A DNA stretch of 64,000 nucleotides from a virus (IMGVR_UViG_3300025035_000003:1-64000); one strand, 5' to 3'; positions 2,084 to 43,857 are shown, counted from the first letter of the stretch. The notes: generated by a model not told the origin, from the letters alone. Translations and numbers: made by a program.

Positions 2084-3139
2084 TTAGTACGTAAAGAGTG
2101 GGAAATATTAGTTACTGAGCAAGTATTAATAGCCGACCAGGCAGCAGGTCTAGCAGTAAGTGCTATAGATTATAGAGAGACCTTAGAGTACTTAGGTACT
2201 TACTTAAATGCGGGAGTTGCGTGGTTAGTTAGTAACCCTATAGTTCCTACATGGCTGGCAGATGTAAACTTGACGACTAACACACCTATAAACCGCAGCA
2301 CCTTTAGAGGTTCATTTAGAATGTACTACTCAGAAAGACAGTTGATTCTTAATGCTATTAGTACAAAATTAAAAGAAATAGCTGATAGTAAGGTGCTGCC
2401 AGCTGATGTGGCTACCGCTATCAATACCAATATCACTACAATTGATGGTGGTAAGATTACTACAGATGCTGTGTTCGCTAATAGGGTATTTGCTGAGAAT
2501 ATAACTGCTACTGGCACTATTACTGGAGCACGCATTAATAGTGGTACTATTACTGGAGCACGCATTAATGGTGGTACTATTACGTCTACTGATTTAGTTA
2601 GTTCTACAATTAGGGTACGTGATTTGCAGGTAGTTACTGATGCTGGGTACCCAACAGTTGCCATAGGTACGCTGTTCTTTACTAATACCCTCACCAGTTA
2701 TAGTGAGATGGTAAGTTACACTAATCTCTATGCGTACAATGCCACGTCAGTTGTTAGTACGTACGGAACTCCTATCAGAGCAGCATCATCACTCATAGGA
2801 ACTAGTATAAGTATATACAGCCCTATTCTATTGTGTATTGTTACGAGTAACATGGGGACGAAGAATGCTATATATGTTGCGATATATATTGGCAGTACGC
2901 TACTTGGCACTGGCAGGATAAACGGTAGGGGAGGAGAGGTGGCAGGAATTACTTTCTCACGTACTACCAGTTATAGTAGGAATACTGAGCAGTACACTGA
3001 CTCCATGTATGTTACATCATTCACGGGGGCTTTTACATTATCTGGGGAAGGACCCCTAAAGGTGGTAGTAACATGTAGGTCTGCTACGATCCAACCAGCT
3101 AATGTAACTGACAATAGAGCTTTACTCTCAAACCTATAG
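2..3139 (+). CDS. Tail fibre / host-attachment protein, 5'-truncated by the window edge
   Basis: Frame is open from base 2. Repeated GDLWFD / GDMWFD-x-Y-R-W-x-G modules, Ala-rich coiled segments and GTITGARIN repeats are typical of phage fibres; the C-terminal domain is divergent. Confidence 0.8.
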   Translation, partial: AQTEAADAKENAIAALTQLTDIASDSVLDPGEKTSVIAARDVIVAEKAGIDTQATAYGITTEKTTYDNAVGALTTYLATLTSPVLWSNLSGNTTIVGTTFRSKFNNVYTTRQALLDKIAIIAKSLVDTAQSTANSKPNVYYQTTAPSSVGRVLGDLWFDSDDKNHPYRWSGAAWASIRDLSIADTATASASANTAALNAMTAAQAAQATADGATTTYYQSAAPTGLNSSTDIGDMWFDTDDNQAYRWSGTTWLTIQDKSIVVALAAAQDAQTTADGKITSFYQTAQPTGANIGDLWFDIDNKNEAHYYNGMAWTTLRDGTIADAFYAAELAQTEAADAKENAIAALTQLTDIASDSVLDPGEKTSVIAARDVIVAEKAGIDTQATAYGITTEKTTYDNAVGALTTYLATLTSPVLWSNLSGNTTIVGTTFRSKFNNVYTTRQALLDKIAIIAKSLVDTAQSTANSKPNVYYQTTAPSSVGRVLGDLWFDSDDKNHPYRWSGAAWASIRDLSIADTATASASANTAALNAMTAAQAAQATADGATTTYYQSAAPTGLNSSTDIGDMWFDTDDNQAYRWSGTTWLTIQDKSIVVALAAAQDAQTTADGKITSFYQTAQPTGANIGDLWFDIDNKNEAHYYNGMAWTTLRDGTIADAFYAAELAQTEAADAKENAIAALTQLTDIASDSVLDPGEKTLVRKEWEILVTEQVLIADQAAGLAVSAIDYRETLEYLGTYLNAGVAWLVSNPIVPTWLADVNLTTNTPINRSTFRGSFRMYYSERQLILNAISTKLKEIADSKVLPADVATAINTNITTIDGGKITTDAVFANRVFAENITATGTITGARINSGTITGARINGGTITSTDLVSSTIRVRDLQVVTDAGYPTVAIGTLFFTNTLTSYSEMVSYTNLYAYNATSVVSTYGTPIRAASSLIGTSISIYSPILLCIVTSNMGTKNAIYVAIYIGSTLLGTGRINGRGGEVAGITFSRTTSYSRNTEQYTDSMYVTSFTGAFTLSGEGPLKVVVTCRSATIQPANVTDNRALLSNL
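2513..2583 (+). repeat. 30-bp tandem repeat encoding GTITGARIN(S/G)
   Basis: actattactggagcacgcattaat occurs twice at a 30-bp period, plus a partial third copy. Confidence 0.85.
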
Positions 3140-3155
3140 ATGGTAAGTCACATTG

Positions 3156-3170
3156 TAACTATGGTATAAT
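3156..3170 (+). promoter_or_regulatory. Extended -10 sigma70-type promoter
   Basis: taactaTGgTATAAT upstream of an AAGGA RBS and ORF 3198; near-identical to the motif at 6070. Confidence 0.55.
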
Positions 3171-3197
3171 TACAACAACAGATAAAAGGAACAAGAT

Positions 3198-4088
3198 ATG
3201 TCACAACGAGTAGTAAAAGAAACACTACCTAACTTAGATGTAACCACAATCTATGAGTCACTGATGGAAACATCTACAGGTAAGCATAGTGCGTACATAA
3301 AGGCTAAAGAGAGCCTACTAGAGTACTTCGGTGCTATAGAAGGTAATGCATCTATAGATGGAGTAGGTATAGGTAACCAGCTCTCAACTAGAGAGAAAGC
3401 GGATATGCTTGCTAAGCTAGTTAGTGAGATGGCTGTGAGCATTACAAATGCTGCTATGCAAACTGCTGTTAGTGTAGCTAAGGAGAATAGAGATGCTCCA
3501 TACGTGCTTACTAAGTTAAGAGTTGATACAGAAGCTGCTCAAGCTAATGTGCTCAAAATAGAAGCAGATACCACAGCAACTAATAAAGCAGTTGAGAGGG
3601 CAGAAGTTGATAAGCAACTTGCTGTGATACAAGGGTGGAAGGTACAATCAGACATGGTACGTGAGAATGGACTAGTGCTTGCTAACCTACCAGCAATAAC
3701 AGAGACTAAATTACCTACAATAGCTATGTCGGATAAAGGGTCAAAATGGGAGCAAGAACAGCAGGTTAAGATGTCTGTGTATGCTACACTAGCTAAAGCT
3801 TATAGAGAGAGTGGTGTAATTACATGGACAGTGGACAACACTACTAATAAGATAGATGTAATTACCGACCTAGCTCCTAATACTCCAGGGCTCACTAAGG
3901 CTCAAGAAAATGTTGCTATTAGACAAGAGATAGCGTTCGATGACAACATGCGTCAGCACGTTGCAAATAGTTCAGCAAATATGGTTAGTTTACTAACTAG
4001 TACAGATAATATCGACAAGACTACACCCGCATTTACTGCGTGGTCCTTAGCTGTTGATTACTTAAATGAAATAACACCTGCACCATAG
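3198..4088 (+). CDS. Putative virion structural protein
   Basis: 296-aa ORF with an AAGGA RBS in the structural module. Confidence 0.55.
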   Translation: MSQRVVKETLPNLDVTTIYESLMETSTGKHSAYIKAKESLLEYFGAIEGNASIDGVGIGNQLSTREKADMLAKLVSEMAVSITNAAMQTAVSVAKENRDAPYVLTKLRVDTEAAQANVLKIEADTTATNKAVERAEVDKQLAVIQGWKVQSDMVRENGLVLANLPAITETKLPTIAMSDKGSKWEQEQQVKMSVYATLAKAYRESGVITWTVDNTTNKIDVITDLAPNTPGLTKAQENVAIRQEIAFDDNMRQHVANSSANMVSLLTSTDNIDKTTPAFTAWSLAVDYLNEITPAP

Positions 4089-6125: not shown

Positions 6126-6725
6126 ATGAACTCAGAAGACTTCCTAAAAAGTAAAACTTACGAGGGTGCAGCTGCTGTAGTGGGCCCATGGAGTCCCTCA
6201 GTTAATACGCTGACTGATGGTGTACGTAGGGATATTGCCTCTATTAGCAATATTAAGCAACTAGGAAGCACTCCTATATATGGCGCTGGTGCTCCTAACT
6301 CTGCAGTGCAGGGCTTAGGTGTTGCTAGTATGAAAGATGGTAACTTGTACTTTGGAGATAAACTTGCTACAGGTGACCAGGTATTTACCTGGGGAGAGGC
6401 CAACCCAGAACTTGCAACAAAGATAAGCGGTGCGCAATTTGATGCTGCTGGTAATCAAGTAGGTGGCGGATTTAGAGGTAGTACCACAGATAAAGGGCCA
6501 GGGTGGGGAATGGGAGGTTATGGGGGACTATTACTAGGTGCTGGGCAACTCGGACTGGGCGTACTCAGCTACTTAGATAATGAGAAAACAGCTAAGAAGA
6601 ATAGAGCCTTAGTAGACCAACAAATAGCTGCAAATAAATACGTAATGGATAAAAGTGTTAAGAATGATGCAGCAGGTACTGATGTGTATAACAAGGTGTT
6701 TGGTGATAGGTATGGTAAACTATAA
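6126..6725 (+). CDS. Putative small internal virion (ejection) protein
   Basis: Gly-rich hydrophobic stretch followed by a Q/K-rich helix; AAGGA RBS; position upstream of vRNAP. Confidence 0.5.
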   Translation: MNSEDFLKSKTYEGAAAVVGPWSPSVNTLTDGVRRDIASISNIKQLGSTPIYGAGAPNSAVQGLGVASMKDGNLYFGDKLATGDQVFTWGEANPELATKISGAQFDAAGNQVGGGFRGSTTDKGPGWGMGGYGGLLLGAGQLGLGVLSYLDNEKTAKKNRALVDQQIAANKYVMDKSVKNDAAGTDVYNKVFGDRYGKL

Positions 6726-6749: not shown

Positions 6750-8438
6750 ATGGCATTAAGACAGGATTTTAGTAGAATGGCCCCAAGTAATACTGGTGCT
6801 GGACTACAAAGCGCGCTAGATAATATAGGTAACATCATGGCAGCTAACCAAGTTGCTGCGGACAAACGAAATGTACGAGACTTAGAGCGAGCTAGAACCA
6901 AGGTACTGGATGATAGAGCTACCGATATATACAATAAAGGTGTGGCCGAAGAAGCGATAACAAAGAATATATTTGCAGGTGCTGCGAAAGGACCACAAGC
7001 AAGAGATAATTGGTTAACAAATGCAGTCGCCAGCCCTGATGGGCAAACATTCTTAGACTCTATATCATTGGAAGGGTTCACCAAGGGAACTGCTGAGTAC
7101 AAAAGACGTTCAAAGGCGCAAGAGGAACTAGGGTCACATGCTATGGACCAATTAGAGTCTCAACCAGAGATGTATAATAGGTTAACTAGACAATATGGGA
7201 CATCCATGAAAGGGGTTGAGGCAGCTGTGGTAGCTCAAGCTGCTCAACAAGCTAAAGAGGATGCATTACGTGCACAGTACGGAAAAGAAATAAATGATAT
7301 AGAGCGTAAGAGAGCAGAATACTCGCTAGGAGCTATAGATAAAAAAGCATCTTTGATGAATAGGGTTGGCGGCACTGTAGTTGGTGGAGATGGTGAAACA
7401 TACACTTCTAGCGGAGGAGGTAAATCTGCTAAGTTCGACCTCCAAAAGTCTAAGGAGTTGGCTGATAGCCTGATAAGTGGTCAAGGTACTGCTTGGTACA
7501 ACCTAACGGATGAAAATAATGCCCCCGAAATGCGAAAAATGCTAACTGCAGCTGCTAATACAGGTGGACTAACTCCAGCATTACTAAATCAAGTAGCTAC
7601 AGAATTTACGTTGACCAAGAAGAAATTAGGTAAAGATGAGATCAATCAAATGGGTAAAAGACTTGCAGAACTTGTTGGGCAGTCTGGGAAAGGTACCACT
7701 ACTAGACCGCTTGATCTATCTGGTGTGGATGCGCGACGAGAGATGGCACATAGACTAGAGGCTCAAAAGTTACAGGCCCAAGACAAGTTAACTAAACTGG
7801 GAATGGGATACAATGAGCGTATGGATATGCAAGCAAGAGAAAAACTAGCACCACTATTCGCTGAGTATAGTCAGCGGGCTACGGAGAATGCTGTTCCACT
7901 TATGAGGACGCCACAAGTAATTACTAAAAAGGGTTCTAACCAGACAGTGACTACGGAGAGTCTAAACGCTAATGGTGGCGCACTTACACCAGAACAGTCG
8001 GTTGACCAATTAAACGTAGATACCAGTGCAATTAAAAAGGGGTCTGACGCTACTACAGCGGCAATAGCGAAACAAATTGCTTCTATAGGAAAACCAGAAA
8101 CTGTTAAGGAGTACGATCAGTTAGAAGCCTTACGCACTCAATTACAAAAACGTAAACTTGCAGAAAGATTGAATAGTTCTGTAACACGTAGTGGTTTAGG
8201 GCCTATGTCAGAGTCTAATAAAGCGTTATGGTCTGGGCTAATAGATGGCATAAACAAGGGACTTATTAATACACGCAACTTACCTGCCGATATACTAAAA
8301 AGGTACATGGAATTGAATAAAGATGCTCGTAGGTATCTTTCTTCTAATGAAAGGGGAAGACTGGAGCGTAAAGAAAAGAATGCCTATGCGCATGATGTCC
8401 TATATAACACTAACCCGAGTGCTCCTCTGGTTAAGTGA
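6750..8438 (+). CDS. Putative internal virion (ejection) protein
   Basis: 562 aa, Ala/Gln/Lys-rich and helical; directly upstream of the vRNAP block. Confidence 0.5.
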   Translation: MALRQDFSRMAPSNTGAGLQSALDNIGNIMAANQVAADKRNVRDLERARTKVLDDRATDIYNKGVAEEAITKNIFAGAAKGPQARDNWLTNAVASPDGQTFLDSISLEGFTKGTAEYKRRSKAQEELGSHAMDQLESQPEMYNRLTRQYGTSMKGVEAAVVAQAAQQAKEDALRAQYGKEINDIERKRAEYSLGAIDKKASLMNRVGGTVVGGDGETYTSSGGGKSAKFDLQKSKELADSLISGQGTAWYNLTDENNAPEMRKMLTAAANTGGLTPALLNQVATEFTLTKKKLGKDEINQMGKRLAELVGQSGKGTTTRPLDLSGVDARREMAHRLEAQKLQAQDKLTKLGMGYNERMDMQAREKLAPLFAEYSQRATENAVPLMRTPQVITKKGSNQTVTTESLNANGGALTPEQSVDQLNVDTSAIKKGSDATTAAIAKQIASIGKPETVKEYDQLEALRTQLQKRKLAERLNSSVTRSGLGPMSESNKALWSGLIDGINKGLINTRNLPADILKRYMELNKDARRYLSSNERGRLERKEKNAYAHDVLYNTNPSAPLVK

Positions 8439-8514: not shown

Positions 8515-11500
8515 ATGAGCATACAAGACGCAATAACACAATTGGCTGGAGCGGATGTAGCTTCATCACTAACAGGCTACACAACCCCAGAAGGTCAAGC
8601 ACAAATTGATGCATTGAGCCTCTCACAACAGCGATCCCTACTACAAAAAAAGATAGACAAACTCACGCAGGCAAGACAAGCTAAAGAAGAAAGATTAGGG
8701 CTCACGCGAGGGCAGCAAATTGCGCAGAGAATAGAGGCTATAGACAAGTCCAAGTATTCACCTGCGATGCTTGAATCAATTCCAGATGCTGATAGTTTAA
8801 CGATGATAGGTGCAGCTAGTGGTAATAGGCTTGCTGGTGACCCAACAATGCCTAACAACTCGGCAGGTTGGGTAGATGCTCCAGAATCGTACCATGGTAA
8901 GTTCAGTGAGTCAGGTAAAGAACAAGCCAGAATAGCAAAGCAAATGCAGCAATATGGTGTGACCACACCTGAAGAAGTGTATAAGTTAAGTGAGACTGCA
9001 CGACTACAAACGCTATATGATATGATGGGCAGGCCTGTAGGTAAAGATGGAAAAGAGTGGGTTCCTGGGCCAATTAAGTATGATGCAAAGAATGATCCAT
9101 TGATACTTGGCTCAAAAGAGCTACCATTAAATGTCCCTGTTAGTGTGTATGATACAGGAGAAGAGTCATTTGGGAGACAGGTACAATATGTAGGAGATGA
9201 AGGTAACACATACGTGCAAAATGCAGAGCTAGCTAAGCAAGGCATGCTATATGAACCAGATACTATAGTAGCGGATACCTCCCAGCTAGGTAACAAGAGT
9301 GAGCCGAGTATACAGGAGAAAGCAATAGAAGCACTTCGTACTGGTTCATGGATAAATGAGAAAGAGGATGCCACATTTATAGATAAATCTGCCAATATTG
9401 GAAAAGGTATTGCCCATGGCATGGCTAGCGTAGCTGCATCTATTTCGGAAGCCCCTAAGAAGTTATACGAGTTATTAGGTAGTGATTATCTAGAGCCTAT
9501 AAGTGAATTCGCTAAAGAAAATCCTACATATAGTAAAGTTGTGAAGTCTGTAATCGATACTATGGCAGATGGTTCTGCTGTTATTAATGCACTTGACAAA
9601 AAGTACATAGGCTTTGATGATACTAGGGTTAAAAAACTGCAAAAAGAGTTTGGAGATGCCTATGATACTGAAAACTACATAACTGGTATGTTAGGGGCAA
9701 TAGTAACTAACCCTGTAGGAGCTGTTGAGCTGGCATCAGAAAGTTTTGCTTTTAGTAAAGCTATGGCCGCTAAAGGTATTGTAGCTGTACCAGCTGTACT
9801 CGGTACGTGGAGCGATAACGCTACAGAGGCTGCAAAAATATATGAGAAAGAGTATGGATTAAAACCTGAAGGTGAAGCTCTTAGGAATATAGCAGCACTC
9901 AGCGCCTTAGGTACGTTAATGGATATGGCTCAAGCAAAGTTATTATTTGATAAATCAGGTGGCACCGCCCTAGCTGCTAAAACTAACGCACTCATTGACT
10001 CGTTAATAGCTAAAGTGCCTACTACAGTCGCACAAGTAGCACTTAAGGGTACTTCAAAGCTGGCAACTCTTATTGGTACAGAATTCACACAAGAAGGAGC
10101 AACTGAGGCTACAACAGTTCTTGGTGGCACGCAAGATCTAGATAGAGCATTGCAAGATAAGTACATTAAACAAGTCTACAAAGCTGCAGCTGGCGGGGCA
10201 GCATCAGGTCCTGGAATGAAGGCTATCGACGTTGCATCAAAATATATTCCTGACGCTAACACATTAAAAGAAATACCATCTAAACTAAGATCTACACTGA
10301 CGCCAGCTTCACAGTCAGATGGTGATTATGTAGTTAGTGCTATGGCGGAGAGCAGTTTACAAGACATAATGAGCGCTTCTGAGCATGAAGGTGTGAAGAA
10401 GGTACTTAGTGGGGAAATACCTGCCACTGAAGCACACCATGCATGGGTTGATCATCACATAACTGCACTGAATACTGAACTAGATAGTATGCCTGATTCT
10501 GTGACCGCTAAAACACGTGATAGTGTAGTAGATGGCTTAGCTAATGCCGTAGCAATGAAAGCTGCAATGGCTCGTGGTAAAGGTACAGCACTAAACAGCA
10601 GACCACTTGGTGAAATAGAGGCTGATGTAGTTGCTGAGCAAAGTAAAGACACTCCAGATGAAAAAGCACTATTTAGATTAAGTGTAGAGAAGGAAATAGC
10701 AGGGCTACCAACACAGTCACCAGGCACTGAACGTGTTAGTGTATCAAAAGAATCAGGCATGAGTGCTGTACAGAGTCATGCACTCAAGTTCTATGGTGGT
10801 AGAGTAGATGGGCAAGAACGAACTGGACTACTAACGTACATAGATGCACTAGAGAATACAGACCCCGATAGTAAGTTGTATGAGTACTTCAAGCAGAGGC
10901 TAAATCACTTTATAGATACTCAGAAAGTAAAATTAGATAAATTAGAGACCGCTAAGAAAGAGTATGATGAGAAGCTAGCTACATGGGACCAAACTGGGGA
11001 GGCCCCTTCCGTTGAGCTAGGGGATGGTAAAGTGTATGATGGTCGTTCCGAGAAAGGGCTATTAATTCCACAGCAAAAAGAATTTGGCATACTAAGCAAA
11101 GTAGGCGCTAGGTACATAGGTACTACTGATGCTTCGGAAGAAAGTGATACCTCTCCTGTTAGTAACGATACAGTACAACAGGATAGTACAAAGCAAAGCA
11201 AAGAACAGTCTGCTGATTATGCTGAGACAGTCAGTGGTGAGCCATCATCTGCGTACACTACAAATGATGATAGCACAGTAGGTGTAACCACAGCGCGAGC
11301 TATCGATGAGCTAGAAAGTGAGATATCAAGATTAGATAGAGAAACTATAGATGATTCATCACTAGCGTCTGCTAACCAGACTAAGATTGAGGGTATACGC
11401 AATAGGATAGCAGAGTTAGAAGGCAGCACACTTGTATCTGAGGGTGCTAAACAAATACCTGTTAATGAACCGGCTCAAGAGATAACCTCTATTACTGAGC

Positions 11501-11631
11501 GTAATACTGAAGTAGTAGATGCAGCTATTAATAAGGCACTAAAAGGTATAATGCTAGGCAAAGATGGTAAATTGAAAGTGGCATTTAGAAACTTTGCCAA
11601 AGCAAATGATATAAACTTAGAAGGATGTTAA
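8515..11631 (+). CDS. Virion RNA polymerase fragment 1 (N-terminal region) or large ejection protein
   Basis: 1038 aa, 1 bp from the RNAP catalytic ORF; its only Cys is the last residue. Confidence 0.55.
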   Translation: MSIQDAITQLAGADVASSLTGYTTPEGQAQIDALSLSQQRSLLQKKIDKLTQARQAKEERLGLTRGQQIAQRIEAIDKSKYSPAMLESIPDADSLTMIGAASGNRLAGDPTMPNNSAGWVDAPESYHGKFSESGKEQARIAKQMQQYGVTTPEEVYKLSETARLQTLYDMMGRPVGKDGKEWVPGPIKYDAKNDPLILGSKELPLNVPVSVYDTGEESFGRQVQYVGDEGNTYVQNAELAKQGMLYEPDTIVADTSQLGNKSEPSIQEKAIEALRTGSWINEKEDATFIDKSANIGKGIAHGMASVAASISEAPKKLYELLGSDYLEPISEFAKENPTYSKVVKSVIDTMADGSAVINALDKKYIGFDDTRVKKLQKEFGDAYDTENYITGMLGAIVTNPVGAVELASESFAFSKAMAAKGIVAVPAVLGTWSDNATEAAKIYEKEYGLKPEGEALRNIAALSALGTLMDMAQAKLLFDKSGGTALAAKTNALIDSLIAKVPTTVAQVALKGTSKLATLIGTEFTQEGATEATTVLGGTQDLDRALQDKYIKQVYKAAAGGAASGPGMKAIDVASKYIPDANTLKEIPSKLRSTLTPASQSDGDYVVSAMAESSLQDIMSASEHEGVKKVLSGEIPATEAHHAWVDHHITALNTELDSMPDSVTAKTRDSVVDGLANAVAMKAAMARGKGTALNSRPLGEIEADVVAEQSKDTPDEKALFRLSVEKEIAGLPTQSPGTERVSVSKESGMSAVQSHALKFYGGRVDGQERTGLLTYIDALENTDPDSKLYEYFKQRLNHFIDTQKVKLDKLETAKKEYDEKLATWDQTGEAPSVELGDGKVYDGRSEKGLLIPQQKEFGILSKVGARYIGTTDASEESDTSPVSNDTVQQDSTKQSKEQSADYAETVSGEPSSAYTTNDDSTVGVTTARAIDELESEISRLDRETIDDSSLASANQTKIEGIRNRIAELEGSTLVSEGAKQIPVNEPAQEITSITERNTEVVDAAINKALKGIMLGKDGKLKVAFRNFAKANDINLEGC

Positions 11632-11632
11632 T

Positions 11633-14600
11633 ATGCGATGCCCATTACAAGAGATAGCTATAAAGTACATAGCAAAATACCCAGAGCTACCTGTAACTAA
11701 GAAACTTAGCAGTGCACTGCAACTTACTGCTAAAGATGCTGACATGCAAATTGATAGTCAGCCCGCAGATTCTAGTAGTTCAGTAGAAGCGTATGTCGGT
11801 GATAAACTAATTAGCAAGATCTCACGTACTTTAGAAGACTCCCAAATACAGGATAGTACTCCACAAGAGGTAGAGCGCTTATCACAATCAAAGAGGGCTG
11901 AGCAAATAGCAGAAACTAAATTAGGAGAACAACAAAATGAAAGACAACCAGAAAACAGAACAGTTACATCAGGAACTACAACAAGCCAAGGAAGAGAACA
12001 AGTTAGTGACAATATTACTAAGCCGAGCGCAGAAGGCCACAGACAAGATAAAGCAACTACAAAAATAGTAGAGCCTGCCGAGGTAGAGTCAGAACTCATA
12101 ATACAAATGCGAGCAGAGTTAGCTACAATTAAAGCTGATACCAATATGAAGTTAGCGTTACTTCATGAGTTGAGTGTGCCATACCATAGATACGGTATAG
12201 CGAAGAGCGCACAGTTAGTGGCTACGAAATTACAGGATAAATATGCTAATGAGATTGACGCGCTACGTAAAAACCTAGCTAGGATACCGGAAATATTAGA
12301 TAAACAGTTAGCCACTATTAAAGGCAGAAAGCAATCGGATAGCACACAACGATTACGCCAAGAAGAAGTGGCCGTCAAACAAGCGAATAGCGCTACTAAT
12401 AAAGTTACGGAGAAGTTGAAGGAAGCTACTAGTGTGGAAGGATTAGCTAAACGTAAAGACGACTTACGCAGTGTAAATAATATGGCAGCATTTACGGCAG
12501 AGTTAGAAGCTAATATTACTAAGAATAAGAAGCGGATCGAGGCGTACAATGTTGCTATAGACACACAAAAGCAAGAAGAAGCATATGAGGCATCAATTGG
12601 TGGGCAACTAATAGACGCAGTAGATACGAATAAGATGAAAAGTAAAGAGGATGTAATTAGAAAGTACAATGCAACTAATCCTCTTAAGGTTAAAGTGCCT
12701 ATGAAGGCTAAAACCATATCAGAGAATCATGGGCTAGGGACACACTTTACATTCAATGGTAAAGGTGTTGACACCACTGTAATAGGTGATCTGCTACAAG
12801 ACTTGGAACCACTTAACACTAAGGAACTGAAGCCACTTAAAAGCACACTGGAGACAGTAGGTAAGCTGATTAGCGCACTAGGATCACTAGAGCGTAGTGA
12901 TAAGATAGCTACAATGACTGAAGATTACCATATCGCGTACGACCCAATGGCACCAAGATTTGGGAAAGGATTCAAGAACGTAAGTAGACTAATGATGAGT
13001 GTTGCAACTAAAGTAGTCCCTAATGGTAATACAGTACTCAGTCACTTCGAGATTAACAAAGATGTAAAGACAGCGATAGCGCTAGGGTTTGTGGACTGGC
13101 TCGGTACAATGGCTGCGCCAATGCGTGCTGAGGTTAGAAGTGAAGCTGATACTAATAGATTACTTCAGATAGACTCAAAGACTAAATCCACTGCAGAGGA
13201 ACGGGCTAGAGTCGCTGATATAGATGGTACAGTACCAACTGCATCTGACACACTAGGAGCTGCTATATGGGACTACTTGGGGTTAAAAGCTAAGCGTTCG
13301 ACGGATGTAGTGAATAGAGATCTAATGCAAGCTAATATGAAAACCGAGCTAGGATTACTTGCTATGCTGGCCGCTGAAGAAGCTGGGTTAGTTACCATAG
13401 AGAAAGGTGTACTACAAACTAAGTTATTCGGTTATACAGCTCCTGTAGGTGCTACAATAGCTACATACAAAGTAACTAGTGGTGTACAAGATGGAACGCT
13501 CAATGATGAAATAGCAAATACTACTACAGGTAATGGGGTAATCAATAGTAGTATAGTTGCAGGTAGTCAGGATATAGCTAAGAATATACTAAATACTGAT
13601 ATACGAGTAAGTACTGGAGTATACTGGAGTGCAGAAGATACTAAAGTAGATAGAGATTCTATACTTAATGAAGGGCTAACTGGTGAGCTAGACGCGACTA
13701 CTACTGAGATGCAGAGAGATGCAATTGAAAAACAAAATGCAGATGGTCGTGTATTCAATAACAGATTCACTGATGGATTAAAAGAAGTAGGTATTGGGTA
13801 CTTTGCTAAAGTGATGGGTTATACTGAGGGTGTCGATGCTACAGTACACAAAGAAGATAGAGCTGCTACACATGGTAAGAACTTAGGTATACAAGATCAA
13901 CTAAAGTATTACCAAGAAGCACTGTTAGAGAGTGAGAAACGAAATAACGCACCTATGTATGCTAAATGGTACATAATGAGTAATAATAGATTTGGTATTA
14001 AGTCAAACACATTCAACTGGCAAGATAAAAAGCTGCATAGACATTCCGTAGAGAAACGTAAGGTGCTAATAGCTAAAGACAGTGTAGAAGAGCAGGTATT
14101 CAAGTTAGGTATAGCGCAAGCTATGGACGTAAGCATTGATAAGCAAAACTATGAGAAGTCAATGGAGAAGTTACAGAGAGTTACTAATGCATTAGATAAA
14201 ATACTAGATGCTTCTCCAGACAACAAAGTTAAAGTTGGGTTCGAGTATATGGTAAACAATGGCATGGCCGGTGAACCTGAGTTAGCATTGCTTGGACTAG
14301 TTGAGTACATAGCATACAAAGAATCTAGAGATGCTGGAACTAAGTTCTATAGCGGAATGACTATAGAGACAGATGCAATCACGTCTGGGTACATACTGAA
14401 GATACTACAAATGCCAGTATTCACTAATGGGGGGAACAGCCTAGACATGGGCAAAGTGTATAGAGAGCTGGCTAGAGGTGGAGTGCTAAAAGAAAGTGAG
14501 AAACAGGCATATGGTGAATGGAGAAGTACTAAAGGTAATAAAGACTCATATGAAGTACCTGCTGAGTTGACTACTACTAAACTAAAAGATACTATGGTAA

Positions 14601-16180
14601 ATTCGACAGCTATTGTGAGAGTTAATGTAGTAATGGACTTATTAGGTGAAAACTTGGATAAAGGCATATCTAGAGGATTTATGAAGAAGCCGTTCATGAC
14701 ATTAAATTATGGATCAGCTATAACTACCATAATTGATAGTAAGGCTCGAGAAGCCGAGGCTAATATATACAAACTACTGACTAAAGCGCATACTGATACA
14801 GGTGCTAGACAGGAGTTAGTACGTATAATGGAAGTGGCTGGTGTACATAACAGTGTAATCCATAGGCTCAAACAAGCACACAAAGATAAAGGGATGCTAG
14901 AATTCGATATGGGTGCTAAGAACATACAACTGGTTAAAGATGTGGTAATAGCTGTACTAAAAGACCCATTGACTGAGATGTTCAACGAGCAGTATGGGGA
15001 TTTCATTAAAGCTACTAAAACAATCAATAGCTCATTCCAAATGATGTTCAGAGCTGCTGAGCCAATGATAAGAGCTAGAATGGATGCTAAGTTAGAAGAG
15101 CTAGGTGCATACATAAATGGTAGCCCAAGATCCCTTACTAATAGTGAGATTAAAGAGGTAATGCAAGACTTAGTAAATGTGCTACCAATATTCAAGATGG
15201 CATTTGCTGATAATAGTTCAAATATAGGGCTAATAGCTAAGCGCGGTAAAGGACAATATGATACTAGTATGGACACCAATGATCAGGCACAGGGTACGAT
15301 ATATGGTGTAGGTGATGGAAATACGCTCAATGCAAGTACTACATTATACAAAATGGTTGAGTCATACACCGGCGGTGCTCCAATAACAGTGCACTTCATG
15401 GATGCAATGATACAAGCAGCTGTACTATCAAAGATAGAGAGTATAGGTGTACATGATGCTAACATACTAGATGTAGTTAATGCAGTTCCAGGAACAAGAG
15501 CATATAATGAAGCTGTAGCTAAACTAGCCGAAACATATAGCTTAACAACGGAAATACTAAGTAGCATGAATAGCACAATGAATACCATAGGTATAGAGGG
15601 GCTAAAAGAGTTAGATAGCAGGTATAAATCCGAAGCAGTCGAGTTCAACCTGAACAGGGCACTGAGTGCTAAGAATGTAAATGCTCAAGTAGCTACAGCT
15701 ATCCGCGACGATATGCGTGAGATAGTAGAAGCGCTGGTTAGTGATGACAAAGGCTGGCAGTCAATACAATTAGAAGCCCTAAGGGAGGCCGGACTAGGTG
15801 AATTCGTTGAGAACTTCAATGAAGCTGAGTTGCAGACTGCAACTGCTATATACACTAGCATGCGTGACCTACAAAGACTCAGTGAAGATGGTCGATACGA
15901 GCTGCTCAATAATAAGTCACTATACATAGAACATTCAGCGTTAGCAGTGGATGGTGCTAGTGTAATTACAGAAGCAAAAGCGTACGAGAAACAAGTTCCA
16001 GAGGTTAAGTTGAGCGACGAGTTCAATATACCAGAACCTGTAGAACCAGCAAAGGCTAAGACTAAAGAAGGTATACTATCTGATATAGAAGCTATACATA
16101 CAGAGTTCAATGCTACTAAAGAAGCTGATGGAACTGCAGGTATACTTGGTGTACTGAATAAAATACTAAAAGGATGCTAA
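11633..16180 (+). CDS. N4-like virion RNA polymerase, catalytic fragment
   Basis: Single-subunit RNAP motifs: A (IETDAITSG), B (RGFMKKPFMTLNYGS) and C (VHDA), plus NNRF..NWQDKKLHR resembling N4 mini-vRNAP. Confidence 0.85.
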   Translation: MRCPLQEIAIKYIAKYPELPVTKKLSSALQLTAKDADMQIDSQPADSSSSVEAYVGDKLISKISRTLEDSQIQDSTPQEVERLSQSKRAEQIAETKLGEQQNERQPENRTVTSGTTTSQGREQVSDNITKPSAEGHRQDKATTKIVEPAEVESELIIQMRAELATIKADTNMKLALLHELSVPYHRYGIAKSAQLVATKLQDKYANEIDALRKNLARIPEILDKQLATIKGRKQSDSTQRLRQEEVAVKQANSATNKVTEKLKEATSVEGLAKRKDDLRSVNNMAAFTAELEANITKNKKRIEAYNVAIDTQKQEEAYEASIGGQLIDAVDTNKMKSKEDVIRKYNATNPLKVKVPMKAKTISENHGLGTHFTFNGKGVDTTVIGDLLQDLEPLNTKELKPLKSTLETVGKLISALGSLERSDKIATMTEDYHIAYDPMAPRFGKGFKNVSRLMMSVATKVVPNGNTVLSHFEINKDVKTAIALGFVDWLGTMAAPMRAEVRSEADTNRLLQIDSKTKSTAEERARVADIDGTVPTASDTLGAAIWDYLGLKAKRSTDVVNRDLMQANMKTELGLLAMLAAEEAGLVTIEKGVLQTKLFGYTAPVGATIATYKVTSGVQDGTLNDEIANTTTGNGVINSSIVAGSQDIAKNILNTDIRVSTGVYWSAEDTKVDRDSILNEGLTGELDATTTEMQRDAIEKQNADGRVFNNRFTDGLKEVGIGYFAKVMGYTEGVDATVHKEDRAATHGKNLGIQDQLKYYQEALLESEKRNNAPMYAKWYIMSNNRFGIKSNTFNWQDKKLHRHSVEKRKVLIAKDSVEEQVFKLGIAQAMDVSIDKQNYEKSMEKLQRVTNALDKILDASPDNKVKVGFEYMVNNGMAGEPELALLGLVEYIAYKESRDAGTKFYSGMTIETDAITSGYILKILQMPVFTNGGNSLDMGKVYRELARGGVLKESEKQAYGEWRSTKGNKDSYEVPAELTTTKLKDTMVNSTAIVRVNVVMDLLGENLDKGISRGFMKKPFMTLNYGSAITTIIDSKAREAEANIYKLLTKAHTDTGARQELVRIMEVAGVHNSVIHRLKQAHKDKGMLEFDMGAKNIQLVKDVVIAVLKDPLTEMFNEQYGDFIKATKTINSSFQMMFRAAEPMIRARMDAKLEELGAYINGSPRSLTNSEIKEVMQDLVNVLPIFKMAFADNSSNIGLIAKRGKGQYDTSMDTNDQAQGTIYGVGDGNTLNASTTLYKMVESYTGGAPITVHFMDAMIQAAVLSKIESIGVHDANILDVVNAVPGTRAYNEAVAKLAETYSLTTEILSSMNSTMNTIGIEGLKELDSRYKSEAVEFNLNRALSAKNVNAQVATAIRDDMREIVEALVSDDKGWQSIQLEALREAGLGEFVENFNEAELQTATAIYTSMRDLQRLSEDGRYELLNNKSLYIEHSALAVDGASVITEAKAYEKQVPEVKLSDEFNIPEPVEPAKAKTKEGILSDIEAIHTEFNATKEADGTAGILGVLNKILKGC

Positions 16181-16183
16181 TCC

Positions 16184-17308
16184 ATGGCATGTGAAATAGA
16201 TAAAACAATAGAACAATTCAAAACCATACTAAGCAGATCTAAGACTACTGATGTGCAGCGTAAGTTAGTAACTGCTGCACTGGGCAAGCTGGAATCGTTG
16301 GTTGCCCTGCGAGATAACACAAGTAATGAAAGTATAGTGGAACAACTGGCTAAAGTCGACACAGCTAGAGTAGTTGAGGGTGTGAAACCATATAATAAAA
16401 CACCACTAACTGAGAAACCACAAGATTATAAGCAGTTAAAAAGCCTCAAAGTAGAAGTATTTGGTAAGTATGAAGGTAGTGGGTTAGATACGGGACAGTA
16501 CTATAAGGGTATGCGTAAGGTAGTAATGAAATTGATAGGTCCAGAAATTAAGAGATCTACTGAGCTATCTGCAGTTGCAATTAAAAATATAATTATGGGA
16601 CAACCAGCTGTTGCTGCGGAATACTTACCGTATTCCAAGATAATTCAATTCAATAGAATAAGTGGTGAGCAGATTAAGACAGAGGTAGATAGTAGGCTAG
16701 TCAAAGCAGTAGAATTAGGTGCTTTACCAGCGGTAGAGAGTACACCAGAGCTATCTAAGAAATATGTTGATATGGTATCTCGCGTGCTACGTAGTAATCA
16801 GAATGATCATACAGTCGTGCATGAACTAATACATGCTGGCTCATTTGAGTTTATGCGAGAATTCCCAGATCATCCTGCAACAGTAAGAGTTAATGAGTTA
16901 TTTGAGCTAGCTAAAGCTAATATAACTAAGACTGTTAACTTCAACTACTGGAAAACTAGTACAGATGAATTTCTAGCGGAGGCATTAAGTAACCCACAGC
17001 TAATAGGCGAGCTAATAAAGTTAGAACCTACTGCTAAGTTAGATAAATTAAGTAATGTGTTCGAGACATTAGTAGACACATTACTAAAGATGCTAGGATT
17101 GAAGGGTAAAGAATTGACTAATGCATTCGAGTACATGCTAGATGGTTACATATCAATGGTAGAAGCACAACAAGCGCAAGATAAGCGAAGTTATCCAGAA
17201 CTAGAGGCACTACTAGGTAAATTAGATGTAATCGTCACAAATGAAGAGTACTTCAATAGAGGACTATCCACTGAAGCTATTCAAGCAATCAAAGATGCAT
17301 GTAAATAA
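16184..17308 (+). CDS. vRNAP-associated fragment 3, zincin-like metallopeptidase domain
   Basis: HELIH (HExxH) motif with downstream EFLAEAL. Confidence 0.65.
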   Translation: MACEIDKTIEQFKTILSRSKTTDVQRKLVTAALGKLESLVALRDNTSNESIVEQLAKVDTARVVEGVKPYNKTPLTEKPQDYKQLKSLKVEVFGKYEGSGLDTGQYYKGMRKVVMKLIGPEIKRSTELSAVAIKNIIMGQPAVAAEYLPYSKIIQFNRISGEQIKTEVDSRLVKAVELGALPAVESTPELSKKYVDMVSRVLRSNQNDHTVVHELIHAGSFEFMREFPDHPATVRVNELFELAKANITKTVNFNYWKTSTDEFLAEALSNPQLIGELIKLEPTAKLDKLSNVFETLVDTLLKMLGLKGKELTNAFEYMLDGYISMVEAQQAQDKRSYPELEALLGKLDVIVTNEEYFNRGLSTEAIQAIKDACK

Positions 17309-17317
17309 GGACTAATA

Positions 17318-20300
17318 ATGAATTGTAACATAGATAAAATAAGAAACATATTAGCTGGCGAAGGACTATCAGGTAAAGAACTAGATGACAGGGTAGAAGA
17401 GTATAAACAACTCAAAATACAAATGTACAATGATGCAGCTGATTCCGCAAGGGTTGTACGTGAGACCGCGTATGGTTATAAAGCTAATGGAGAGAAGTTT
17501 CATAAGATCGTGGACATACTAGGAGTAACTAAAACTACTTATGGTTATAGTATTAATGTTAACCCTACTACGAAGAATGGGGTCGACAAGATAGATGTCG
17601 ATAGCTATGGGCTGAATATAGGCAATGGTAAGTACAACTTTACAAAAGGTGTACTAGATAGGATGGTCAAAGAAAATGCTGAGCATGGATTAGTAGATGG
17701 CACAACACTATACAATCAAAGTGGGACAACACAAGAATACATAGATAGAGCATTCATGGATGCAGATACGACTAATGATACAGTGCATAACATACAACTA
17801 GCAATGCAGAAAGCTGATCAAGAAGCACTAGGTGGTGACTGGGATGCAGAGCATAGTGAAGCACTAAAAGGTGTAACTACAGAGCTACAAAGACTATCGA
17901 AGACCATAGCAGGTATGAACATACTAGTAACTAAAGATAAAGTAGCTAGTATAGTAGAACCAATAGGCGAATTCAATCCTAATGCAACTGATAACAAGAT
18001 CAGATTAATCAGAGGTAGTCTAGGTGAAGAAGCTAGAAATAAGTTCACTATGACAAATGAAGAAGCAATGACGCACGAGCTAGTACATGCTGCATTAGAT
18101 TGGATATTCCATACTACTGACAAGACTGTTGGCCAGGCATTAAAATTGCAGATACGTGGACTGTACAAGTATGCTAGCAAAGTAGTAACTGTAGAAGATT
18201 TCATGCCAGAGCACAAAGGTGTATACACTAACATAGAGAAGCAGAAGGCCCAAGCGAGATATGATTATATATTTGGTACAAATAGTGAGATACAGACAGT
18301 AGCTGATGCTGATGCTAGACTACAGGAGTTCATGGCACATGCAATGACTAACAAAGCACTAGGTTATGCACTTAGTCAAAAGTTACCAGAGAACGTGCTA
18401 AGAGAGAAGGTAGACGGTGAAAACCTATTAGAAACGCTAAGTAGATGGATATGGAATGCATTCCAAATATTTGTAACTAAAGCTAAGAAGATCAAAGGTG
18501 AGAATCTCCTAGAAGAAACTACTAAGTTGGTGTATGCAATGACTGCCGTACAGGATAGATATGCTAGCAAAGCTACTCAGATGCAGGGTATGCCATTAGA
18601 TGAAAAGATAATGGGCATGGTCAATAAGCAGACAGATAAACTAGATGCATTATTAGGTAAACCAGTTGATTGGATACTAGAGAAGACAGTAGGAGAGGAT
18701 ACGGGTACTATATCACCACGTAGTAAGCACACTAAAGCGGAGATAGATAAGATAATACGAGAAACACCAGGGCTAACTGCTATGTCACTAAGTAATGATC
18801 CAGTTATACAGATGGCATACAAGTCAGAGTTTATACGTGAATGGGTTGCTGAAGAAGTAGATGCTGGGCGTAGGATGGAAGCAGCTATATACGTAAATAA
18901 GCTGGGAGAAGCACTAGCTAAGAATGCTCCTAAACCGACTGATGGATACATCAAGCAAATGTACAAAGCCGCTACTACACTGAAGAATATACGTCATATG
19001 AATAAAGTAATGAAGCGTACGATAAATAATGAAGGGTTAGCTAATGTACAAAGTAAGTTATTACAGCAAATGGGATTGGGCGAGGGGTCATTTGCTGCCG
19101 CGGTAATGGCTGACTTCGTTACGGGACGTACTACGTTGGTACAAGCGGCGGATATGACTATGCAGTTCAGAGCACATATAGATAGATTGCGTGAGAAGAA
19201 CTTTGAAGGTACACTAGAAGACATAGTAAATGGGTTCACTAAGATAAAGATCAATGATACGAAAAATAAGAAGTATAGAGAAGCGCTAGAAAGTGCTGTA
19301 CTATCTATTGATTTACAGTCAGTTGGATTAGATATAGGCATTGATGGATTGACTAGATTAGTTAATAGTGATGATGTAATTGATGCAGAGATAACTAAGA
19401 TAGTAGGCGAATTAGCTAAAGTTGGGGAGTATGCTAGCGAGATGTGGCAGCGTGAAGCAAAATCAGTCGCACAGTTCATGGTAACTGGTACCGGGTTGCG
19501 ATCAAATGCTAGAAACATAGTTAATATGTATGGTCATGCCCAGTCGTTCCCTGAGGGAATTGGTAATCCATATAGTGATAGAGAGCAAGTAATTGATAAG
19601 CTAATAACACTATACGCGTTGAAAGAAGCTGCTGGGCGTGCCGAGTTAGCCGAGTTACTTGAGCAAGATCCAGATGGTGTAAGAAACTATATGGAAACTG
19701 CAAGAGGTATGATTAGAAGTACCGAAGAAGAGATGGAAGCAGGCGGGGAGCATGAGAACTTCGTTAAAGGGCAGACTAATGACCGACTAGACCCTAACAA
19801 AGATATACAGTATGCTCCTATGTATAATAGAGTCGATATGGAAGCACAAGGCTACGCATTCGTGAAACGTATGGAGATAGCTCTAGGCGACTTTGATAAG
19901 ACAGCCTATGGCATGTTCTATAGTAACAATGCTGGTATAGGGAAACGTGTGGATGGTGCAGTAAGTTTGCAAAGACGTAATATTCCAGGATTACTACTAA
20001 GTGATAAGGTTAGGATGTCAAATCCACATCTAAAGGACAAAGCACTTTGGGACGTGATAGCTAAAGAGAAGAAGAAAGCTATAGATGTATACAGGAACAA
20101 AGGTGATGTGAGCATGCAACCAGTGTACTCACCATTAGGGGATATACAAGACTTCAGATATGTTATTAGTAAAGAAGACAAGGTTAGTAAGTTAGATATG
20201 AGTGTGAATGGGGTTGAGAAGTTAGGGCGATCATTCGGGCAAGTTGGCACAATGACAATGACTAATGAGCAGAATAGAAACCTAATAGATATAATTAGGA

Positions 20301-21625
20301 AAGATAGTGCGGAACGTGATACTAGTAGTGATATGTACAAAAACAATGCACACTTGTACATAAAGATTCAGCCTAAAGAATTTGATATGACTGATGAGGA
20401 AAGAGTTGCAGCGTACAAGCACGGTACGCTGAAGTTAGAGGATAAAGGTAAATATGGATTCAAGACGGAGGGTGAGGAGTTATGGGGACTACTTCCTCCT
20501 GATGCACGTAACTACATAATTGAGAAAAATAGAGAAGAGGACTGGAAGAGTAATAAGGACGAGAACATTAGAGATAAGCGGGATATTAAGCCAAGACGTG
20601 AATTATATGTACGTAGAGATTTAATAAACCAGCTATTCGCATATAATGAGCCAAGTATTATGGATATAAAGAAGATAGGTAAAATACCTCTTAAGGTATC
20701 CGCTAAGGTTGATAGAAACGTACGACTAGCTGAGAACTACTTCAAAGCATTTGTTGCTGTACTAAAAAGTAACGTAGTAGTTAAGATGCCATCGACTATA
20801 TATGGGAACATACTGAGTAATGCTAAGTTCTTAGTGTACTCTGGAATGAGTCCAAGACAAGCGATTGATAACTTATCATTAAGTAGAAAGAGTTTAAAAC
20901 AGTGGAAAGCTGATGAAGTTCTACAGCATAGATACGAAAGATTAATTGCTAGTACTGAAGGTAATGAGCGAGGTAAGTACAAGAGATTACGTGCAGATAC
21001 AATTAGTAGCATGAATGCCAACCCATTGAAACCATTAATGGACGCTGGATTATTCCAATCGGTAGTTGAGGGCGTATCGTTAAGAGAAGATGATAATAAT
21101 GTGGTTAGCAATGCAATTGAGAAGCAAGTTATAAAAGTTGTACCTCAAGGAACATTACTGCATGAAGTTGTCCAGACAGTATTCCTAACTAAGAAGTCAG
21201 CACTAGGTAGATTCATGGTAGGAGTAACTCAAGAGAGTGACTTCCACTTTAGAGCTGCTACTTATTGGCATGGTATTGCGAAAGGAATCCCTGAAGCTGA
21301 GATTATGAGTGATGTTAAGGAAAATTTCATCAACTACTCAAAGGTAATAAACTCAAAGTTCGTGCAATGGTTAGATAGAATGGGACCAGAAGCGTTCTGG
21401 AAATACTGGGCTAATATCCAGAGAGTACAGATAAATCGACTACGAAAGAATACATTCAAGGTACTAATGGATGTAGCCGCTCAGAAGGTTGGATTGTCCC
21501 CTGATGCCGGAATATATCATTCAAATATATTTCAATCACTCGGTAGAAGACTCAGCCCAATTGATAGTATGACCAACTTGTTTAGAGGTGGGAGTGATGC
21601 TCCAATCTTCAACTTCTTCGGCTAG
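17318..21625 (+). CDS. vRNAP C-terminal fragment 4 with N-terminal zincin motif
   Basis: HELVH and EFMAHAM motifs; the C-terminal QESDFHFR / ENFINY region resembles the N4 vRNAP C-terminal domain (recognised from memory). Confidence 0.65.
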   Translation: MNCNIDKIRNILAGEGLSGKELDDRVEEYKQLKIQMYNDAADSARVVRETAYGYKANGEKFHKIVDILGVTKTTYGYSINVNPTTKNGVDKIDVDSYGLNIGNGKYNFTKGVLDRMVKENAEHGLVDGTTLYNQSGTTQEYIDRAFMDADTTNDTVHNIQLAMQKADQEALGGDWDAEHSEALKGVTTELQRLSKTIAGMNILVTKDKVASIVEPIGEFNPNATDNKIRLIRGSLGEEARNKFTMTNEEAMTHELVHAALDWIFHTTDKTVGQALKLQIRGLYKYASKVVTVEDFMPEHKGVYTNIEKQKAQARYDYIFGTNSEIQTVADADARLQEFMAHAMTNKALGYALSQKLPENVLREKVDGENLLETLSRWIWNAFQIFVTKAKKIKGENLLEETTKLVYAMTAVQDRYASKATQMQGMPLDEKIMGMVNKQTDKLDALLGKPVDWILEKTVGEDTGTISPRSKHTKAEIDKIIRETPGLTAMSLSNDPVIQMAYKSEFIREWVAEEVDAGRRMEAAIYVNKLGEALAKNAPKPTDGYIKQMYKAATTLKNIRHMNKVMKRTINNEGLANVQSKLLQQMGLGEGSFAAAVMADFVTGRTTLVQAADMTMQFRAHIDRLREKNFEGTLEDIVNGFTKIKINDTKNKKYREALESAVLSIDLQSVGLDIGIDGLTRLVNSDDVIDAEITKIVGELAKVGEYASEMWQREAKSVAQFMVTGTGLRSNARNIVNMYGHAQSFPEGIGNPYSDREQVIDKLITLYALKEAAGRAELAELLEQDPDGVRNYMETARGMIRSTEEEMEAGGEHENFVKGQTNDRLDPNKDIQYAPMYNRVDMEAQGYAFVKRMEIALGDFDKTAYGMFYSNNAGIGKRVDGAVSLQRRNIPGLLLSDKVRMSNPHLKDKALWDVIAKEKKKAIDVYRNKGDVSMQPVYSPLGDIQDFRYVISKEDKVSKLDMSVNGVEKLGRSFGQVGTMTMTNEQNRNLIDIIRKDSAERDTSSDMYKNNAHLYIKIQPKEFDMTDEERVAAYKHGTLKLEDKGKYGFKTEGEELWGLLPPDARNYIIEKNREEDWKSNKDENIRDKRDIKPRRELYVRRDLINQLFAYNEPSIMDIKKIGKIPLKVSAKVDRNVRLAENYFKAFVAVLKSNVVVKMPSTIYGNILSNAKFLVYSGMSPRQAIDNLSLSRKSLKQWKADEVLQHRYERLIASTEGNERGKYKRLRADTISSMNANPLKPLMDAGLFQSVVEGVSLREDDNNVVSNAIEKQVIKVVPQGTLLHEVVQTVFLTKKSALGRFMVGVTQESDFHFRAATYWHGIAKGIPEAEIMSDVKENFINYSKVINSKFVQWLDRMGPEAFWKYWANIQRVQINRLRKNTFKVLMDVAAQKVGLSPDAGIYHSNIFQSLGRRLSPIDSMTNLFRGGSDAPIFNFFG

Positions 21626-43255: not shown

Positions 43256-43480
43256 TTATTTATTTATCTCACGTATAGTATTTAATGCTTTAGTTCGTAA
43301 ACAATGTTCAGGATGTGAAATATCTTGCATAGTTTTAGCGGATTCATTTTTGTTATAACTTGTTCTACTTCCACATAATGGGCAAAGTGAATAATAAGGC
43401 CCATTACTATCATCATCTTCTAATGGTTTGAATGTTTCGTCAAACTCTTCTACTGTGTACATGTCTTTATATGTTGTCAT
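43256..43480 (-). CDS. Small CxxC protein inserted between the polymerase halves
   Basis: CPLCG...HPEHC; ATGA overlap with the upstream ORF. Confidence 0.55.
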   Translation of the reverse strand: MTTYKDMYTVEEFDETFKPLEDDDSNGPYYSLCPLCGSRTSYNKNESAKTMQDISHPEHCLRTKALNTIREINK

Positions 43481-43854
43481 TTTATTTCCTCCACGTTCCA
43501 ACCATATGTAAAATCAAGTTCATTGCTAATTTGATCACCTGCCCAGTAGTCCATATCTGCTCCACTATTGTATAGCTGCTTGGCTTTAGTTATTGCTTCG
43601 TATGGTGAGGATGCTTCGACATCTAGATTAGCAAATTGTGCTTCCGTTACTAAGAATTCAGGGCGAACTCGATACTTATGAAGTGGGTGGGTACTAGCTA
43701 TTTCCTGCTTGCATGTGTTTAATTCTGCTAATAGCTTAGGATCAGTGAACCCTTTCTCGACTACAGTGTGGAGTGCTTCTGTGAGATGCTTGATGCGTAC
43801 GTTGAGTCGCTTGTTCTTTGCTTTATTCCGCCTAGCTGATAGTGAACGTGCCAT
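43477..43854 (-). CDS. Hypothetical protein inserted between the polymerase halves
   Basis: 125 aa with a basic N-terminus. Confidence 0.55.
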   Translation of the reverse strand: MARSLSARRNKAKNKRLNVRIKHLTEALHTVVEKGFTDPKLLAELNTCKQEIASTHPLHKYRVRPEFLVTEAQFANLDVEASSPYEAITKAKQLYNSGADMDYWAGDQISNELDFTYGWNVEEIK

Positions 43855-43857
43855 TGG

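Follow-up and report, generated by a model that had tools for sequence, protein, structure and literature searches.

Within a 64,000-nucleotide stretch of viral DNA (IMGVR_UViG_3300025035_000003:1-64000, hereafter the window), four co-directional open reading frames (ORFs) lie end to end and together encode 4362 amino acids with only six cysteines, all six at most three residues from an internal junction between two ORFs. The window belongs to a virus record of 101,225 bp that is complete and has direct terminal repeats, and the ORFs are best explained as the N4-type virion RNA polymerase (vRNAP) of a complete 101-kb N4/AD45-like podophage, broken mainly at flexible interdomain linkers. Judging from the sequences compared here, the placement of the cysteines is a family-wide rule for such divided polymerases, and we consider it likely that the terminal cysteines form head-to-tail disulfide clasps that restore a single threadable chain.

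Six cysteines in a divided virion RNA polymerase

Translation of the four ORFs, referred to below as pieces 1 to 4, gives the lengths, the six cysteines, the end motifs, the cysteine-less outer termini and the gaps of 1, 3 and 9 nucleotides just as an earlier note on this DNA had described them (Table 1). The interiors of the pieces are free of cysteine, a residue that makes up 0.86% of the rest of the 101-kb genome (193 in 22,537 amino acids); about 37 would be expected in the pieces, versus the six seen. Were six positions drawn at random, the probability that all would land in the 18 slots no more than three residues from the six internal ends would be 1.9e-15. Of 27 further gene pairs with tight coupling in this genome, none has a cysteine on both sides.

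Table 1. Coordinates of the polymerase pieces, their junctions and the ORFs upstream of them, counted from the first nucleotide of the window.
Feature	Coordinates	Strand	Description
199-aa ORF	6126..6725	+	cysteine-free; in the place of the small ejection protein (N4 gp52 / DEV gp73), by position and size
562-aa ORF	6750..8438	+	cysteine-free; directly upstream of piece 1, in the place of N4 gp51 / DEV gp72, by synteny
Piece 1	8515..11631	+	1038 aa, N-terminal domain; one Cys only, at the last residue, 1038 (codon 11626-11628)
Junction 1	11626..11641	+	...LEGC stop / 1-nt gap / MRCP...; frame changes
Piece 2 (ORF2)	11633..16180	+	1515 aa, RNA polymerase core; Cys at residue 3 (11639-11641) and at the final residue, 1515 (16175-16177)
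Piece 2 motifs		+	motif A D914 (14372-14374); motif B R1014..G1027 (14672-14713); motif C H1274-D1275 (15452-15457)
Junction 2	16175..16192	+	...LKGC stop / 3-nt gap / MACE...; frame kept
Piece 3 (ORF3)	16184..17308	+	374 aa, variable cargo piece; Cys3 (16190-16192) and penultimate Cys373 (17300-17302)
Junction 3	17300..17326	+	...DACK stop / 9-nt gap / MNCN...; frame kept
Piece 4 (ORF4)	17318..21625	+	1435 aa, C-terminal domain; one Cys only, at residue 3 (17324-17326)

The virion RNA polymerase family phrog_2206 is matched in colinear order by ORF2 (3e-83) and ORF4 (8e-109). In a genome search the phrog_2206 profile reads through ORF2-ORF3-ORF4 at profile positions 1025-2249, 2249-3028 and 3048-3403, and piece 3 lines up with the vRNAP profile, in colinear order, at about 2060-2249. 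A profile built from homologues of ORF2 matches the N4 mini-vRNAP structures 2PO4/3C2P/3Q0A at 2e-32, unlike a search of the Protein Data Bank with the single sequence, which gave no match. The T7-type motifs are intact in ORF2, motif B including K1018 and Y1026 between the residues listed in Table 1, and ORF2 is, as judged from these residues and matches, a catalytically intact N4-type vRNAP core of the single-subunit, T7-like kind. Piece 1 is homologous to the first pieces of relatives (L004_p1, and L020 r1 at 44% identity), which themselves align weakly to the N4 N-terminal domain, and piece 4 aligns to N4 gp50 at residues about 2365-3478. Identity to named phages is at most about 25%; a megablast of the locus against them found no match, a Pfam scan of the four pieces found no family, and ORF3 used as a query found no match in viral contigs. 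The families PF21867 (vRNAP_dom_2) and PF21894 (N4_RNAP_helical) gave no local match at E<=0.01, but the controls were equally silent, and a precomputed table lists PF21867 for the protein.

Like coliphage N4 gp50 and other Schitoviridae vRNAPs (such as gp71 of the Pseudomonas phages DEV/LIT1), to which they are homologous and colinear, the pieces hold T7-type motifs, run from N-terminal domain through polymerase to C-terminal domain, and have a cysteine-free interior. The earlier note had described the N4 enzyme as a single, roughly 3500-residue protein without cysteine, and this was borne out: N4 gp50 has 3500 residues and LIT1 gp71 has 3398, neither with a cysteine. The window differs in encoding four polypeptides rather than one chain of about 3,500 residues (about 3,000-3,800 in the family), in having six terminal cysteines versus none in N4 and LIT1, at about 25% identity, and in placing an extra variable piece between the polymerase and the C-terminal domain. 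The genome, at 101 kb versus about 70 kb for N4, also has no detectable homologue of N4 RNAP II (gp15/gp16) anywhere in its length. The T7-like RNA polymerase profile phrog_414 matches ORF2 alone in the whole genome (1-64000 plus 64001-101225), and the phage may have no RNA polymerase other than this split-out piece, as reported for AD45 phages. From homology, the cysteine-free interior and synteny, we infer that the pieces are packaged in the virion and ejected into the host.

Terminal cysteines in related polymerases

We assembled 25 two-sided junctions from 12 loci: three in the window, 17 in L001-L009, one in the Alteromonas phage AD45-P3, three in L020 and one in L025. The last two loci are the new ones from a metagenome scan that mostly re-found viral loci, L020-L028 otherwise duplicating L001-L008. 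At all 25 junctions a cysteine at position -1 to -5 of the upstream piece faces an M-x-C or M-x-x-C start of the downstream piece. In nine IMG/VR loci, at 25-34% identity, the vRNAP is divided into two or three pieces, with two stray internal cysteines in total.

An exhaustive phmmer search yielded 242 cluster representatives (50% identity), and among the best 150, which were analyzed, cysteine placement follows architecture. Unsplit chains (about 34 representatives) have no terminal cysteine and two internal ones in total; first pieces made of N-terminal domain plus polymerase (about 40) have a C-terminal cysteine only; polymerase-only middle pieces (33) have cysteines at both ends; and last pieces made of polymerase plus C-terminal domain (10) have an N-terminal cysteine only. 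In Schitoviridae, vRNAPs and their ejection partners are otherwise cysteine-free, a value of 0.00075% having been published for 191 (PMC11445570). Fusion removes both cysteines of a junction, as in L007, where the domain of ORF3 is fused to the polymerase piece and no cysteine is present, and fusions of the N-terminal domain with the polymerase have one cysteine. In a polymerase-core tree of 135 rows, the split between N-terminal domain and polymerase changes many times; among 16 independent contrasts between split states, the N-terminal cysteine was concordant in 11, opposite in none and without difference in five (p about 0.001). The earlier note had proposed mapping cysteines in homologous split vRNAPs; with the terminal ones kept at every two-sided junction and throughout the architectures of about 150 representatives, its observation becomes, for the sequences sampled, a rule of the whole family.

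The Alteromonas phages vB_AmaP_AD45-P1 to P4 are cultured relatives, of about 101-104 kb, which likewise have a split vRNAP, although they differ from the window in having two pieces rather than four and share about 24% identity with it. In AD45-P3 both ORFs are intact, and the two have no cysteines other than those at -3 and +4 from the junction. Re-sequencing verified the AD45 split, and gels showed both polypeptides, of 270 and 175 kDa (PMC3821669). The authors took the cysteines as a sign that the protein is not injected (PMC3821669), the opposite of the disulfide reading proposed here.

In L009 the gap between the N-terminal domain and the polymerase looks like a frameshift and was left out of the junction count. 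We considered it as a split without a clasp and rejected this, as the polymerase frame stays open through about 50 upstream codons without a start and overlaps the frame of the N piece; L009:8560-8800 is probably a fusion of N-terminal domain and polymerase with a frameshift, either a sequencing error or programmed. In L007 an unusually long spacer of 187 nt (L007:7930-8116) lies between piece 1 (...KDC) and piece 2 (GTG start, V-A-C), the other junctions ranging from -4 to +20 nt.

To place the splits on the N4 protein, piece ends were projected onto N4 coordinates with a hidden Markov model of 38 unsplit vRNAPs. Polymerase pieces start at about N4 800-1030 and end at about 2020-2110, and C pieces start at about 1980-2110. 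N4 gp50 has been described as beads on a string, in which flexible linkers at 907-1007 and 2102-2123 join three globular units, and threading through a channel of ~35 Å has been proposed for it (PMC13434306). The two main splits thus fall near or bracket these two linkers, and the third, which separates ORF3 from ORF4, falls near the beginning of the C-terminal domain.

Logos of 108 C-terminal and 63 N-terminal cysteine-bearing ends show cysteine as the only invariant residue at either type of end. Beyond the C-terminal cysteine there is a tail of 0-5 residues, often lysine; the N-terminal cysteine is preceded by M-x in 51 of 63 ends, x being mostly S, A, G or T, and the residue directly before it is small (S, A, G or T) in 53 of 63. 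Both flanks have a weak hydrophobic periodicity of 3-4 residues, which suggests that they form amphipathic helices. In these ends we found neither a conserved His, Asp, Glu or second Cys nearby nor a universal clasp motif. Within this phage the end modules of different junctions show no similarity beyond the cysteine (z<1.5), a dissimilarity that would suit junction-specific pairing. The idea that piece 3 was born from duplication of a junction was rejected on the same grounds.

How the ends may be joined

A precedent for a bond between such ends comes from the cyanopodophage A4 (Anabaena phage A-4L). In a cryo-electron microscopy structure of its virion pre-ejectosome (PNAS 2025), Cys1715 of gp27 forms a disulfide with Cys5 of gp26, and the C-terminal helix of gp27 is inserted into gp26 (PMC12002296). 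In the A-4L genome these large ejection proteins are encoded by adjacent co-directional genes, gp26 (1114 residues) directly downstream of gp27 (1717 residues), and the two bonded cysteines are the sole cysteines of their proteins, at -3 and +5. The junctions in the window have this same signature of a near-C-terminal cysteine upstream and a cysteine within the first five residues downstream. The likeness is, on these comparisons, an analogy of mechanism and not family membership: A4 gp26/gp27 and the vRNAP pieces gave no phmmer or hmmsearch match at E<=1, and, unlike the window, A4 has no polymerase in its chain and a single junction. The A4 paper treats the bond as a local stabilizer and states no general rule (PMC12002296).

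The earlier note had proposed that the fragments are re-linked head to tail by disulfides or metal sites. Head-to-tail linkage gains strong comparative support from the conserved pairs and from their loss on fusion, and the A4 disulfide gives it a structural precedent. We infer the formation of the bond in this phage, its timing and its role in packaging and threading, as follows. The pieces would be translated separately, tight translational coupling giving them in 1:1 amounts. In the virion, the near-C-terminal cysteine of each piece would bond to the N-terminal Cys3 of the next, making an unbranched chain of beads on a string; only linear chains are possible because each end has at most one cysteine and there are no others, and the joint would stay narrow enough to thread because the stubs past the bond are 0-5 residues long. 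By way of such a chain, pieces without the packaging determinant, which in N4 the C-terminal domain carries, or without the entry determinant, which in N4 the N-terminal domain carries, would be packaged and then drawn one after another through the narrow channel of tail and envelope. Oxidation would probably take place after release, because no phage redox enzyme was found. More speculatively, the reducing cytoplasm could open the bonds, and the polymerase would then part from both the membrane-anchored N piece and the C-terminal piece; in N4 the N-terminal part and the C-terminal domain anchor and autoinhibit the polymerase (PMC13434306).

Several points weigh against a disulfide-linked chain. 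The bond itself has been seen in A4 only. Thioredoxin, glutaredoxin and DsbA were not found in the phage genome, and the control for an Erv1 search was uninformative; if the phage has no redox enzymes, oxidation would be spontaneous after lysis or dependent on the host, and there would be no dedicated oxidation pathway like that of poxviruses. In N4, the N-terminal domain and the polymerase have no stable contact that would bring the ends of junction 1 together. Among the best 150 representatives, P0074, P0018, P0086, P0119 and P0142 look like split ends without cysteine, and the tree contrasts for the split between polymerase and C-terminal domain (three concordant, none opposite, four without difference) are by themselves too sparse for significance. 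Finally, the two AD45 bands come from a gel whose conditions are not stated (PMC3821669).

Other chemistry has been weighed against these data. The terminal cysteines might bond elsewhere, to a portal or inner-core protein, to the same end of a second copy, or to host Dsb proteins during passage. The sequences give two-sided co-occurrence and not the pairing itself, and homotypic pairing is geometrically possible, given that a virion holds several copies of the vRNAP. If each cysteine had a partner of its own, however, strict two-sided co-occurrence and two-sided loss on fusion would be unexpected; the outer termini never have a cysteine, and the A4 bond joins an upstream C-end to a downstream N-end (PMC12002296). 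We regard bonding to other partners as unlikely.

A metal-mediated clasp, in which the thiols bridge a Zn, Cu or Fe ion, was the other possibility raised by the earlier note, and it has fared less well. Intermolecular zinc hooks exist, for example in Rad50, and provide a precedent, but the single cysteine is the only conserved residue at each end, with no conserved His, Asp, Glu or second Cys to assist it, and two ligands are too few for a stable Zn site. As the A4 density was also modeled as a disulfide (PMC12002296), a metal bridge seems distinctly improbable.

Less probable again is ligation, whereby a cysteine acting as nucleophile would create a post-translational, intein-free peptide bond and hence a true single chain. 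A cysteine near one N-terminus and another by the facing C-terminus do resemble the reactants of native chemical ligation, and the small residue before the cysteine (53/63) permits removal of the Met. Yet the cysteine is at position 3 rather than 1 or 2, no Hint/intein domain was found (Pfam being blank on every piece), and the AD45 virion proteins form two bands, 270 and 175 kDa, that match the separate ORFs (PMC3821669). Split inteins or trans-splicing were rejected as well, there being no Hint halves and only 0-5 and 2-3 residues in the ends beyond the cysteines.

It is also very hard to credit that the cysteine codons act at the RNA level, as a signal for coupling termination to reinitiation. 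They occur only at internal junctions, where coupling happens and where the downstream ribosome-binding site is embedded in the last codons of the upstream piece. None of the 27 other coupled pairs, however, has TGT or TGC on both sides, both codons are used, their distance from the stop varies from 0 to 5 codons, and the pair is kept across gaps of 20 and 187 nt and conserved at 25-35% protein identity in more than 100 clusters. Because codon and spacing vary and other coupled pairs lack the cysteine pair, the clasp would be a feature of the protein.

That one continuous gene has been broken up by errors of assembly or sequencing can be dismissed almost outright, although junctions 2 and 3 are in frame and the AD45-P3 vRNAP region is labeled in GenBank (KF005318.1; L010:1606-13288) as a misc_feature, "potential frameshift", without a coding sequence. 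L020, which was assembled independently from a metagenome and whose pieces 2 and 4 are 75-78% identical, is divided into the same four pieces at identical boundaries and has all six cysteines. There are three separate stops, and each piece has its own ATG and an AGGA-type ribosome-binding site that lies within the closing codons of the piece before it; junction 1 changes frame; pieces end and start at these points in more than 100 clusters; and the AD45 split survived re-sequencing, with both proteins seen (PMC3821669). As the two AD45-P3 ORFs are intact and follow the terminal-cysteine rule, the GenBank label is wrong and hides two real genes.

Exchangeable cargo, neighboring genes and implications

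The description of the locus as a four-piece polymerase in the earlier note holds as to its four ORFs, but not as to piece 3 being a fixed fragment. Piece 3 of the window (374 aa) and that of L020 (1239 aa) have no more in common than their first 71 residues (63% identity) and their final 23 (87%). Between these ends, L020 piece 3 (L020:14300-18019) has the body of a Dda/RecD-type SF1 helicase, matching phrog_325 at 2e-47 as well as AAA_30 and UvrD_C_2, with a Walker A motif at residue 574. It contains no internal cysteine, whereas the window's own replicative Dda-like helicase has nine in 437 aa, and it has the look of a helicase that is ejected as part of the vRNAP chain. In L002 this same body is found at residues 2333-2809 of a 2821-aa protein, joined to the end of the polymerase piece. 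The body of ORF3 is homologous to the domain fused to the polymerase in L007, and Atlas gives weak leads to LPD-type domains. That clasp ends are kept while the body of piece 3 is exchanged points to a modular chain with swappable cargo. More tentatively, single-cysteine clasps may be a general, modular coupling for an injectable podophage train, whose cars, among them a cysteine-free Dda-like helicase, can be inserted, swapped or fused with their clasp ends retained and which the reducing cytoplasm would uncouple, freeing enzymes that here would include the phage's only RNA polymerase, parted from its membrane anchor and its C-terminal domain.

Such modularity recalls the polyvalent proteins (Iyer et al., 2017; PMC5512222), which are also large, multi-domain, delivered with the DNA and equipped with swappable enzymatic modules including helicases. 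They are single polypeptides, whereas the modules described here are separate gene products apparently coupled after translation, and the polyvalent-protein paper mentions neither cysteines nor splits (PMC5512222).

Upstream of piece 1, the window resembles N4 and DEV in that small cysteine-free ORFs precede the vRNAP in the positions of ejection partners (Table 1). The 199-aa and 562-aa ORFs gave no family match and no homology to the counterparts in relatives or to LIT1 gp72/gp73, and their assignment as ejection partners is a positional one, suggested by synteny as described in the DEV paper. In L020 a 212-aa cysteine-free ORF takes the place of the 199-aa ORF, and the ORF directly upstream of piece 1 is cysteine-free in eight related loci and in L020. 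In L009 the ORF directly upstream is the N domain itself, and the next one further upstream is also cysteine-free.

Elsewhere in the window, a 448-aa ORF (41909-43255, minus strand) matches the polymerase part alone of DNA polymerase I profiles (phrog_17 positions 894-1209), and the DNA polymerase may likewise be encoded in separate pieces, together with the neighboring 43477-44757 (minus strand). A 399-aa ORF (48238-49437, minus strand) matches phrog_2825, annotated "polymerase", at 7e-30, with a weak reverse-transcriptase-family match (7e-6). An 846-aa protein (599-3139, plus strand) with two cysteines has repeated segments matching the tail-protein families phrog_38044, 33754 and 38009, and this repeat-domain protein is likely a tail fiber or appendage.

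In the literature searched, we found no paper stating a terminal-cysteine rule for split vRNAPs. New with respect to that literature are the rule itself, the chain with multiple junctions and the swappable cargo, whereas the polymerase family and, from A4, the type of bond were already known.

The 2026 N4 structure paper closes on the question of how a protein of ~400 kDa can be packaged and then pass through a channel of ~35 Å (PMC13434306). Natural splits that appear to need a covalent staple at flexible linkers bear on it, as continuity of the chain, and not the mere presence of the domains, would seem to be required for delivery. The disulfide reading reverses the published AD45 interpretation of the cysteines, and the idea can be tested directly in that cultured system, AD45 on Alteromonas macleodii. 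It also offers an annotation rule for ejected cargo in metagenomic phages, namely proteins that are large, cysteine-free and tipped with cysteine at their facing ends. Finally, a helicase piece flanked by clasps suggests that the chain is extensible, which bears on the proteins that phages deliver at the first moment of infection.

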